Shown: positions 1 to 4,149, numbered from the stretch's first letter. The stretch: DNA of 64,000 bases from Gemmatimonadota bacterium (GCA_039588275.1 JBDHAC010000006.1:58807-122806), one strand, 5' to 3'. Numbers and translations are program-made. The notes: generated by a model not told the origin, from the letters alone.

Positions 1-83
1 AGGAAGGGATCGATCAGCAGCCGCGTGCCGTCGGCGGCCGTGATCTCGGTGCATGCGTGCCCGTGGAAGATCAGTCTACCCAT
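1..83 (-). CDS. Metal-dependent hydrolase, MBL fold (UPF0173-like), N-terminal part only; runs off window
   Basis: Manual translation MGRLIFHGHACTEITAADGTRLLIDPF: GH(A/S)C...LLIDPF start typical of the family; GGAGG RBS upstream; not in ORF track. Confidence 0.75.
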   Translation of the reverse strand, partial: MGRLIFHGHACTEITAADGTRLLIDPF

Positions 84-2194: not shown

Positions 2195-2899
2195 TCAGCT
2201 CTCGGTGCCCGGGTCCCCTGCCTGGAGCCGAGCGCGGGCCTGCCGCTCGGCCTTGAGCCTCTTGCGTGCCTGCCGATCGGTCTCGCCGGAGAGTCGTTCC
2301 TTGATGTCCACCCCGGCCATCATCGCGAAGCCGTTCACCTTGATGACCGGTGCGTCAGGGTTGGCGGGCCGGCTCGGCTCCTCGGCCCCGAACCCGCCCA
2401 TGATCGCCACTCCGCTGGACTCGACCCGCACGCCGGGCGGGACGATGATATCGACACCGCCCATCAACGAGATCACGGTCACCCGGGTGACGGGTGAGGC
2501 AAAATCGGCGTCGCGGAAGTCGAGCTCGGCGCCACCCATGATCGCGAGCACGGTGAGCTGCTTGGGCGGCGTCCACATCCCCTTCCGCTCTACTCCCCCC
2601 ATGACCGCGACGAGGAAGTCGCGCTCGCTGACGGGGAGCGTCGGATCTACGACGACCGGAGGAACGGCGGGATGCAGCTCGGACTTGGCGGGAGGCGCGC
2701 CCGGCTCGACCAGCGCGGGGAGGTCCGACTCGAGCGCCACGAGCTCCGTCTTCTCGCGCGCCGCGTAGGCGAGGTCCAGACGGCGTTCGAAGTCATCCAC
2801 GCCGAGGTGATCGCGCGCGAAATGCGTGCACAGCCGCTTGACGACCCGCTCTCGCTCCTGAGGCGTGATCGGCTGGGCCGGAAGATGGTCGTCCGTCAT
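2195..2899 (-). CDS. DUF1707 (SHOCT-like) plus LiaF/DUF2154-like domain protein
   Basis: ERERVVKRLCTHFARDHL..DDFERRLDLAY N-terminus and MGGAELDFRDA/MGGVDIIVP repeats; start moved to MTDDH. Confidence 0.8.
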   Translation of the reverse strand: MTDDHLPAQPITPQERERVVKRLCTHFARDHLGVDDFERRLDLAYAAREKTELVALESDLPALVEPGAPPAKSELHPAVPPVVVDPTLPVSERDFLVAVMGGVERKGMWTPPKQLTVLAIMGGAELDFRDADFASPVTRVTVISLMGGVDIIVPPGVRVESSGVAIMGGFGAEEPSRPANPDAPVIKVNGFAMMAGVDIKERLSGETDRQARKRLKAERQARARLQAGDPGTES

Positions 2900-3005
2900 C
2901 GTTCGTTCGTCATCGGTTGATTCTCTGCAAGCTCCCGTGGTCGGGCAAGCTGGCCCTCTCCGCGTCCGGATCGTGAGCCGAAGTCGGGACGGGGACCGAC
3001 ATCGC

Positions 3006-3034
3006 TTGCCCGGGAGGCGACCGGGCTCCAGAAT
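3006..3034 (+). promoter_or_regulatory. Candidate sigma70 promoter for small transcript/dapF
   Basis: TTGCCC-17 nt-CAGAAT. Confidence 0.4.
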
Positions 3035-3040
3035 ACGCGT

Positions 3041-3298
3041 CATACTACTGGCGCCCTATCGTGAAACCTTGTGAAAGGAGGTGATCCAGTGTCTGATGGG
3101 AGTAGACCGGGTCTAACTCGACACGGGCAAGCGATCGCCTCAGCGCAGGAGTAGCACACCGGACTCGGGAAAGTTGCGTTGAGTTGACCACACGCCGACC
3201 TGATCAGGAGCGAGCCCCGGCTGGGCATCGCGTCGAGTTAGGTCCGAACTGAACACGACGGCCGCAGGCGCGACACGAGCCTGCGGCCGTCGTGTATT
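3041..3298 (+). ncRNA. Putative structured small RNA (or short-peptide mRNA) with 16S-3'-end complement
   Basis: AAAGGAGGTGATCCAG at 3074-3089; 15-bp long-range stem 3108-3122/3232-3246 with 2 G-U pairs; inner stem CTCAGCGCA/TGCGTTGAG; 17-bp 3' hairpin. Confidence 0.55.
3253..3295 (+). terminator. Perfect 17-bp hairpin (terminator-like, weak U tail)
   Basis: ACACGACGGCCGCAGGC (3253-3269) / GCCTGCGGCCGTCGTGT (3279-3295). Confidence 0.65.
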
Positions 3299-3345
3299 CG
3301 ATATCCAGCGGAGCCGTGGTCGAGACCGCGGAAGGTTCAGGGTAC

Positions 3346-4149
3346 ATGCCTCGCTTCAGCAAATACACCGGCGCGGGGAACGACTTCGCCCTCGTGCGCG
3401 CGGAGGAGGTGGGTATGGGCGATCCCTCGGGCCTGTCTCGCAGGATCTGCCCCCGGGAAACCGGTGTCGGCGTCGACGGCTTGATTCTCGTCCGCAGCCT
3501 GTCCGACGACCACATTCGATTGCGCTTCTTCAACCCCGACGGGTCCGAGTTCGGGACGTGCGGCAACGGCAGTCGGTGTGCGGCCCGGTACGCCGTGGAA
3601 CGAGGCCTGGTGCCGGAGCCCGAACTGACGCTCGTGACGGACGACGGTGAGATCGATGCGCGCGTCGGGGAGGAGGTCGTCGCGCTCGACTACCGCATCG
3701 AAGCCGTGCTCGAGCGTGAGGTCCGGGTAGAGGTCGCGGGCTCCGGCCGGAAAGGGTGGCTGGTGCAGATCGGCACGCCCCATCTCGTGGTCCTGCTCGA
3801 CTCCGTCGAGCTCCCGGACTTCGACTCCGCCTGTCGGCCGATCCGGTCCCACGCGGAGCTGGGCTCAGAGGGGGCCAACGTCGACCTGGTCGCCGCCACC
3901 GGTACCGATTCGGTCTCGATCCGCACGTTCGAACGGGGGGTCGAGGGCGAGACCCTGGCCTGTGGTAGCGGCGCAATGGCTACCGCGCTCGCGCTCCGAG
4001 CGGCCGGTCTGTCGAACAAGCGGCTCACCCTCGAGACGCGGAGCGGGGCCGCGCTCACCGTCGAGCTGCGCGACCGCGAATCGCTCATCCGGCTCTCCGG
4101 ACCCGCACGACACGTGTTCGACGGCGTCTACCCCGACACCGCCGAGTGA
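3346..4149 (+). CDS. dapF: Diaminopimelate epimerase
   Basis: KYTGAGNDF, NPDGSEFGTCGNGSRC, FERGVEGETLACGSG. Confidence 0.93.
   Translation: MPRFSKYTGAGNDFALVRAEEVGMGDPSGLSRRICPRETGVGVDGLILVRSLSDDHIRLRFFNPDGSEFGTCGNGSRCAARYAVERGLVPEPELTLVTDDGEIDARVGEEVVALDYRIEAVLEREVRVEVAGSGRKGWLVQIGTPHLVVLLDSVELPDFDSACRPIRSHAELGSEGANVDLVAATGTDSVSIRTFERGVEGETLACGSGAMATALALRAAGLSNKRLTLETRSGAALTVELRDRESLIRLSGPARHVFDGVYPDTAE

Follow-up and report, generated by a model that had tools for sequence, protein, structure and literature searches.

In the window analyzed here, a 64,000-nucleotide stretch of DNA from a Gemmatimonadota bacterium (GCA_039588275.1, JBDHAC010000006.1:58807-122806), the plus strand of positions 3041-3300 probably encodes a stand-alone small mRNA of about 260 bases. 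By analogy with the rre small mRNAs of Alphaproteobacteria, it would dock on the 3′ tail of the 16S rRNA through an extended Shine-Dalgarno stretch, which leads into a GTG-started frame of 21 codons. Judged from its sequence, the unit is a genuine gene: it is conserved and has a promoter, a covarying rod and a terminator. The same analogy suggests that its likely mode of action is to dock on the small subunit of the ribosome and that translation of its mini-frame is likely weak. An earlier note on this DNA had described the promoter, a 16-mer complementary to the 16S rRNA, the GTG frame, two stems and a closing hairpin, and we recovered all of these at the same positions.

A long complement of the 16S rRNA end and a mini-frame

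The 16-mer AAAGGAGGTGATCCAG at 3074-3089 is the complement of the 16S rRNA 3′ end. The genome's own 16S 3′ end, which lies at the end of another contig, reads ...GCGGCTGGATCACCTCCTTTC, and the complement therefore comprises 17 bases with G3073 included. The extended Shine-Dalgarno stretch on the plus strand thus spans 3073-3089 and is a perfect 17-base complement of the genome's own 16S 3′ end (GAAAGGAGGTGATCCAG); its last base, G3089, opens the GTG start codon. Exact runs of the 17-mer on both strands of the 4,107,552-base assembly numbered two of 17 bases (the unit itself and the rRNA gene), two of 13 and seven of 12, and the 17-base complement is beyond chance. The reach of the complement into helix 45, to which the earlier note had drawn attention, is present in this genome but is not a conserved trait: the last bases, CCAG, which face helix 45, read CTAG, CAAG or CTCG in relatives or have lost one base. 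The conserved core of about 14 bases, GAAAGGAGGTGATC, faces the single-stranded 16S tail, and the Shine-Dalgarno variants found across the order are only wobble-compatible ones.

Collecting homologues, as the earlier note had suggested, revealed that the unit is conserved and that its rod covaries in related genomes. Of 41 related genomes searched at the DNA level, 27 had matches, a few being short and spurious; over the 5′ 100 bases, identity between genera was 80-90%. The exact pattern of the 5′ module was found in 92 of the 145 genomes of the order and its reversed control in none; such exact-pattern counts include a few unrelated sites (L176, L177, L180, L183 and L187), and the count obtained with a covariance model is preferable. 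This model, R1, combines 56 distinct units (alignment A2, selected by a pattern demanding the Shine-Dalgarno stretch and GTGTC) with the rod structure. It found exactly one match, at 49-174 bits, in 112 of the 145 genomes, and among the good-quality genomes 68/75 were matched. The genera in which R1 found no match were g9 (0/5), g10 (0/3), g11 (0/8) and g4 (0/1). Eighteen further units that R1 found and the pattern missed were fetched; they have wobble-keeping Shine-Dalgarno variants and spacers of 6-7 bases.

A complement of this kind is known from rreB of the Bradyrhizobiaceae and rreR of the Rhodobacter/Roseobacter clade (Hahn et al., RNA Biol 2017;14:1353, PMC5711450; what is said of rre here and below draws on excerpts of that paper). 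rreB is an mRNA of 165 bases with a 17-base complement of the 16S end, including the G of GTG, and a frame of 14 codons, and a hairpin is predicted to hide the complement except for its five upstream bases. It co-sediments with the 30S subunit in gradients. Its translation is weak, held back by both the GTG and the long Shine-Dalgarno stretch, and replacing GUG by UAG lengthens the half-life from 10 to 37 min. Analogues such as rreR, with 18 codons, occur in four alphaproteobacterial orders, and an ATG form is found in Azospirillum. The RreB and RreR peptides are conserved within their clades, the synthetic peptides are unstructured, and the function of the RNAs has been called elusive. Overproduction of rreB left growth unaffected, and in the authors' judgement ribosomes greatly outnumber the RNA (PMC5711450).

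Like these mRNAs, the unit of the window has a perfect 16S complement of 16-17 bases (at least 16 bases against its own 16S rRNA) that ends in the G of GTG, a very short frame, one copy per genome, an RpoD-like promoter and a terminator recognizable at the sequence level, what appears to be a small stand-alone transcript, and a predicted hairpin that would hide the complement and leave five upstream bases free. For another rre trait, a short frame conserved within the clade, the picture is mixed: the frame is open in all 56 distinct units and the peptide is alike in 49, and it is frameshifted in the window's genus and in five members of the sister family of the order. By its hallmarks the unit is of the rre kind. 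The earlier description of an orphan whose family is not recognised is superseded by these hallmarks and by a sub-threshold match to CC2171 through the same 5′ module. The unit differs from rre in its length (about 260 vs 165 bases), in its frame (21 codons vs 14 or 18, with dissimilar peptides), in a long covarying rod that closes a variable middle, in a second, alternative partner for the hiding helix and in the frameshift of the window's genus; it belongs to the phylum Gemmatimonadota rather than to the Alphaproteobacteria. Among the alphaproteobacterial loci listed in our searches, frames are of 14 codons in those of the Bradyrhizobium type (with a tRNA beside L096) and of 18 codons in Rhodobacterales, as published.

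The mini reading frame of the window unit (3089-3154, plus strand) runs from the GTG at 3089-3091 through 21 codons to the TAG at 3152-3154 (MSDGSRPGLTRHGQAIASAQE). It contains an internal look-alike of the 16S tail (GCGATCGCCTC, 3131-3141, plus strand). The open frames of the 56 distinct units have 18-24 codons, and their stop lies 0-18 bases, mostly 9-12, past the look-alike (10 bases in the window unit). The look-alike is read in a single frame, as ...S(T/A)RAS(D/G)(R/C)L..., in 49 units; the other seven are frameshifted, yet their stop still lies 10-14 bases past it. The window's genus has a 1-base deletion after codon 7 that replaces the last 14 residues, and the five sister-family members have a 1-base insertion that replaces the last 9; the frameshifted units keep the RNA features and a near-identical place of the stop. 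Larger length differences inside the frame amount to 3, 6 or about 9 bases. In the R1-only units the start is GTG in 15 and ATG in 2 (17 of the 18 could be resolved), and the frames have 19-22 codons. Because the start triplet varies only between these two start codons and the frame length survives the frameshifts, the data argue for a ribosome start at the GTG and for selection on translation of the frame and on its end point, rather than on the frameshifted part of the peptide.

The same observations bear on the proposal of an ordinary small-protein gene, in which the peptide of 21-22 residues would carry the function and the fold of the RNA would serve only to adjust its production. The single frame of the look-alike and the likeness of the peptide in 49/56 units, the 3-, 6- or 9-base size of the larger in-frame differences, the restriction of the start to GTG and ATG, and the clade-wise conservation of RreB and RreR (PMC5711450) all fit such a gene. 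However, the deletion and the insertion replace most or part of the peptide while the RNA features and the stop are kept, the conserved codons lie in base-paired RNA, so that peptide conservation may be a by-product, and the peptides are unlike between lineages. The excerpted account of rre adds that synthetic RreB and RreR are unstructured and that a predicted overproduction of RreB was without effect on growth (PMC5711450). We consider a small-protein gene unlikely and prefer an mRNA of the rre type.

A sigma-70-like promoter on the plus strand (TTGCCC at 3006-3011, a 17-base spacer and CAGAAT at 3029-3034; 3006-3034 overall) would place the RNA start near 3041. In relatives, a TTGNNN-16..18-NANNNT motif ending 8-32 bases before the conserved leader GCCC is present in 30 of 58 distinct upstream regions vs 3 of 58 control windows. 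The terminator hairpin (3253-3295, plus strand) pairs 3253-3269 with 3279-3295 in 17 pairs under a 9-base top. A strong terminal hairpin, differing in sequence and mostly followed by a T-rich run, closes the unit in 15/15 relatives; the U-tail is weak in the window's genome and clearer in the relatives. A scan with consensus models for promoters and terminators called neither element of the unit. The 261-base stretch has a folding energy of −121.6 kcal/mol, compared with −95.8 ± 5.2 kcal/mol for 200 shuffles (z = −4.97), and the plus strand is taken as the RNA strand because many G-U pairs of the rod become C-A on the other strand. A Pfam search of the minus-strand open reading frame (ORF) at 3040-3228 and of the plus-strand ORF at 2865-3074 found no domain. 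The earlier proposal of a self-contained, structured plus-strand transcript with its own promoter and terminator is thus borne out as far as the sequence features go.

In the search for expression, every sequencing run held fewer than half of the words sampled from the stretch. One short contig each, of 181, 179 and 199 bases, came from three metatranscriptome runs of two studies, and these contigs cover only 3065-3243, 3072-3242 and 3065-3254, respectively; a 647-base contig of a fourth run extends past the unit both ways, and in four other runs the DNA contigs go on into dissimilar flanks. The short RNA contigs confined to the unit are a weak hint of the discrete RNA species for which the earlier note had proposed to look; such contigs give neither strand, ends nor level, and the parts that they leave uncovered are uninformative.

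The rod and the predicted closed form

RNAalifold on 15 units (alignment A1) predicted a long rod with a variable middle, followed by the terminator hairpin, with compensatory changes. All its parts lie on the plus strand. In the lower stem, 3108-3122 pairs with 3232-3246 in 15 pairs, two of them G-U. A conserved one-sided bulge, ACGGGCAA (3123-3130), seen in alignments A1 and A2, marks the junction to the upper rod, in which GCGATCGCCT (3131-3140), that is, the look-alike, pairs with GGGCATCGC (3223-3231). The latter strand, the 3′ partner of the look-alike, is itself Shine-Dalgarno-like and reads GAGGC-ATCGC in most relatives. The middle part varies in length and sequence between genera and contains an apical hairpin (3139-3183) formed by CTCAGCGCA (3139-3147) and TGCGTTGAG (3175-3183), as indicated by the sequence, the fold and five covarying pairs in A1.

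On the 56-unit alignment the rod comprises 22 pairs, and 85.8% of the cells are paired; the unpaired cells belong mostly to the sister family, whose lower stem was misregistered by the alignment. Two-sided changes occur in 10 pairs, compared with 6.0 in shuffles (1/500 of which reach this value) and 1-7 in slid controls, and in the lower helix they affect 9 of the 13 counted pairs. The helices between the look-alike and its 3′ partner are paired in 98.9% and 88.8%, with an A-U to G-C change in eight sequences. The conserved leader GCCC (3053-3056, plus strand) may pair with the near-invariant GGGC (3125-3128) of the rod bulge, both sides of this possible pairing being too uniform for covariation: in the 15 sequences of A1, the leader's C23 and C24 never vary and its G22 and C25 are conserved to at least 90%, and in A2 one G of the bulge GGGC is invariant and its other three positions are at least 90% conserved. 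By eye, the leader GCCC is also present in the 18 R1-only units.

The rod-like fold recalls the earlier suggestion of a 6S-like rod, or of another protein-binding rod RNA, for which the 16S complement would be incidental. The 6S model RF00013 had no match in the window, in the genome or in 25 relatives (26 genomes, 25 of good quality), which would be compatible with such an RNA; as the model detects 6S RNA in no more than 5 of 14 control genomes, however, little can be read from its silence, and the absence may be a blind spot of the model. Against this reading, about 65 bases at the 5′ end, with the start site, lie outside the rod, whereas 6S RNA is a rod closed by both ends around a central bubble; complement, spacing and start codon are all conserved, and no Rfam family matched at its gathering score. 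A 6S-like role is thus extremely unlikely.

The look-alike has another partner. In the closed helix, 3078-3086 of the Shine-Dalgarno stretch pairs with 3133-3141 in nine pairs, and 503 of the 504 cells are paired, compared with 29-60% when the strands are slid. An exchange of A-U (36 sequences) for G-C (20 sequences) within this helix distinguishes the order's two families. In the sister family, which has GGAGGTGGTCC, GCGACTGCCTC and GGCGTCGC, the three strands have changed together. The altered Shine-Dalgarno base would pair G-U with the rRNA and G-C with the look-alike, because the sole readable sister-family 16S tail (L226) retains the U (GGATCACC). L226 alone was read, most sister-family genomes being devoid of the 16S 3′ motif; L227, considered as a second such tail, proved to be a false match. 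The single-contig sister-family genomes G030, G043 and G028 contain 0/3 conserved motifs of the 16S 3′ domain, and their rRNA operons are seemingly missing from the assemblies.

The closed form is predicted to leave 3073-3077 free, which means that all of the complement but its five upstream bases would be hidden. When the 15 sequences were forced either closed or open, with the look-alike paired downstream in the latter case, the median difference was −2.9 kcal/mol (−11.7 to +0.7, n = 15), so the two forms are close in predicted energy. From the single-sequence folds forced with an open Shine-Dalgarno stretch, 15 sequences were dropped when the pattern for the 3′ anchor failed.

Pairing between the body and the Shine-Dalgarno stretch is also seen elsewhere. 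Across 112 distinct loci of the module from other lineages, the median pairing energy of the body with the Shine-Dalgarno 13-mer is −13.6 kcal/mol, compared with −10.7 kcal/mol for an upstream control and −11.55 kcal/mol for the reverse complement; RNAs of the rre kind may thus commonly contain such a 16S-tail look-alike. A trans-acting regulatory RNA could be read into the same feature: 3131-3141 would block the ribosome binding sites of other mRNAs, with the 5′ Shine-Dalgarno stretch as an internal lid, and the better pairing of the body than of the upstream control in 80/112 and of the reverse complement in 90/112 of these loci is compatible with it. However, this segment is helical in both predicted forms, no target mRNA came to light, though none was looked for, and the conserved start codon and frame length would be left unexplained. 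We regard such a regulator as very unlikely and take the look-alike to be part of an rre-type mRNA.

Riboswitch expression platforms and RNA thermometers mask a ribosome binding site with an anti-Shine-Dalgarno-like strand that can pair elsewhere instead. The unit resembles these devices in its layout and differs from them in that Rfam scans recognised no ligand-binding fold in it, that it would regulate its own mini-frame, and that the hidden site comprises 14-17 bases.

A proposed mechanism and its rivals

The architecture of the unit is established by the alignments, and for its mode of action we infer the following steps from the rreB analogy and the comparative data. The free RNA would rest in the closed form, 3078-3086 being paired with 3133-3141 and the seed GAAAG (3073-3077) single-stranded. 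Binding of a 30S subunit would begin at the seed and drive out the look-alike, which, once freed, would pair with 3223-3231, so that the long rod would form. Initiation at the GTG would be slow, and to proceed the translating ribosome would need to open the rod's 5′ strand before stopping 10 bases past the look-alike. By analogy with rreB, which is bound to the 30S subunit, impeded in translation and subject to start-codon-dependent decay (PMC5711450), we take the point to be the engagement of the ribosome rather than the peptide.

Several points weigh against this interpretation. For the Gemmatimonadota unit, the ends of the transcript, its 30S binding and translation, and the switch are predictions. 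The A-U to G-C exchange of the closed helix is probably a single evolutionary event and is suggestive rather than proof, and the look-alike is also held by its other partner, which means that the two pairings are not independent evidence. The single-sequence folds vary in the partner that they give to the Shine-Dalgarno stretch, which is the look-alike in some and the leader in many. The invariance of the Shine-Dalgarno stretch and of GTGTC in A2 is by construction. The peptide keeps one frame and is fairly conserved in 49/56 units, so that it may have a function of its own. Moreover, the sequence shows no likeness to rreB, rreR or CC2171 past the 35-base 5′ module, and common descent is not established.

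The earlier suggestion that the RNA captures or titrates 30S subunits holds in part: the leader appears to be built to pair with the tail, and the rre relatives were found bound to the 30S subunit at the bench (PMC5711450), but simple titration is unlikely. As a sponge, the RNA would titrate free 30S subunits or mask the anti-Shine-Dalgarno tail without productive translation. A complement of 14-17 bases far exceeds what initiation needs, and rreB travels on the 30S subunit in gradients (PMC5711450), as a sponge would. However, there is a single gene copy per genome, overproduction of rreB changed nothing in growth with ribosomes far outnumbering the RNA (PMC5711450), and a sponge has no need of a conserved start codon and frame length. 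A sponge is quite unlikely on this balance, and we retain the translated rre-type mRNA.

The neighboring genes provide a further comparison. On the minus strand, and identified with Pfam, lie gcvP (100-1446), gcvH (1581-1979) and a DUF1707/LiaF-like gene (2195-2899), which are co-directional and divergent from the unit; on the plus strand dapF (3346-4149, Pfam) starts 51 bases after the hairpin. Across both families of the order, gcvH is the divergent upstream neighbor in 60 of 73 loci. Behind the unit, dapF is present in 27/48 loci of the window's own family and in 0/25 sister-family loci (27/73 overall).

It had been proposed in the earlier note that the unit is a leader or attenuator for dapF-mutY. 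The same-strand position of dapF close behind the hairpin, its presence after more than half of the own-family units, and the 647-base RNA contig that extends past the unit on both sides would suit a cis-acting leader. Such a role is nevertheless unlikely as a general one because of the dapF linkage: dapF is absent after the unit in all 25 sister-family loci and is missing after 21/48 own-family loci. In addition, the terminator is self-contained and lies about 7 bases past the rod, with which it does not overlap, an alternative pairing that would include the terminator is not evident, and the peptide is devoid of a run of one regulatory amino acid. We therefore set the attenuator aside as highly unlikely. 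A related dual-function candidate is rnTrpL/peTrpL of Sinorhizobium, where an attenuator RNA doubles as the message for a leader peptide of 14 residues (PMC10117765, in the excerpts on which we draw). It shares with the unit a small terminator-ended RNA, a mini-frame and alternative pairings; unlike the unit, it is leaderless and without an extended Shine-Dalgarno stretch, senses tryptophan codons, and has pairings that include the terminator.

Relation to CC2171, distribution and significance

A search of the whole window against Rfam gave no match at gathering score, so the unit has no confident assignment to a known family. RF01867 (CC2171) scored 27.0 bits against a gathering score of 75 (E = 8.7e-4, over the full length of the model, positions 1-159), and by the family's own threshold the unit is not a member. 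It nevertheless shares with CC2171 the identical 5′ module GAAAGGAGGUGAUCCAGUGUCU, followed by a stem closing a branched middle and then by a terminator. RF01867 scores 26.6-37.4 bits on the units of the order, 91-120 bits on Caulobacter-type loci, 40-63 bits on other alphaproteobacterial types and 38.9 bits on a Planctomycete locus. Conversely, R1 reaches at most 35.8 bits on those other-lineage loci, mostly on the module alone. Scores near 27 bits reflect the module alone, because a chance ribosome binding site of Streptomyces reaches 27.5 bits with R1. From our own reading of the loci, the members of RF01867 appear to be rre-type RNAs. CC2171 is a Caulobacter small RNA and, according to an excerpted preprint, was validated by Northern blotting in Methylorubrum (bioRxiv 10.1101/2022.01.24.477521).

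In a full-text literature search on 'CC2171', the rre paper was not among the matches. Searches for the letters of the motif returned only synthetic oligonucleotides, and those for sponge, decoy or mimic wording returned nothing bacterial; a Caulobacter sponge paper considered as a parallel deals with other small RNAs, and one on the small proteome of Sinorhizobium offers general background only. MicroRNA-like Rfam matches obtained in a scan by E-value lie on the terminator hairpin and were rejected.

The matches listed from a scan of one genome per species are mostly alphaproteobacterial, together with Gemmatimonadales and one Planctomycete. In the order of the latter, 81 genomes were sampled, and 16 of them have a single copy of the 5′ module. 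Of the 12 Planctomycete loci inspected (L211, L213-L223), 9 look by eye like units of about 120 bases that have a terminator and a frame of 10-11 codons; in six of these the frame begins MSDC.

Among 401 sampled genomes of the phylum, the exact module is rare outside the order: families f3 (4/166) and f8 (1/4) have it, and no other family does; two of these five sites are unrelated, and three are short units of another build. In Gemmatimonadales, L184, L185, L186, L038 and L049 are different, shorter units with the same module and a closing stem CATGACC/GGTCATG, and L038 and L049 have a 14-codon frame (MS.D..KARIAGS.); in the Gemmatimonadales family the exact module is found in 4/166 sampled genomes, one of the sites being unrelated. 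Two single loci may also be mentioned. L045, at the end of a 7.6-kb contig labeled Cytophagales, carries the module and MSRKVLE, an N-terminus typical of rreR of Rhodobacterales, and the contig may be mis-binned. L093 (Streptomyces sp.) has, at about position 400 of the locus, a tandem pair of short ORFs whose ribosome binding sites are strong; the first has 51 residues and is Cys-rich near its C-terminal end. These ORFs resemble precursors of a modified peptide, and the module match is due to chance.

In the excerpted published account, rre RNAs are confined to Alphaproteobacteria and have the longest natural Shine-Dalgarno stretches on record, with tight 30S binding and poor translation (PMC5711450). 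The present comparison adds an rre-type design in Gemmatimonadota and a related unit in an order of Planctomycetes; a copy of the 16S tail within the RNA that appears to pair and co-vary with the Shine-Dalgarno stretch and has an alternative partner in the rod; and a mini-frame whose length seems to be kept through frameshifts. The same design is a near-universal single-copy gene of the Gemmatimonadota order and occurs in the Planctomycete order as well, and it is therefore either very old or repeatedly reinvented, both of which argue for a general role at the ribosome. To the alphaproteobacterial rre mRNAs, the family contributes comparative support for the hiding helix, an alternative rod fold and natural frameshifts, and the combined data turn the elusive function of rre into a testable switch model. 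We offer as a tentative and rather doubtful extension that these RNAs form an old class of ribosome-gated switches across Alphaproteobacteria, Gemmatimonadota and Planctomycetota, whose fold would report the pool of free small subunits. If so, the internal copy of the 16S tail would compete with the 30S subunit, and the decay or activity of the RNA would be a direct sensor of ribosome availability.

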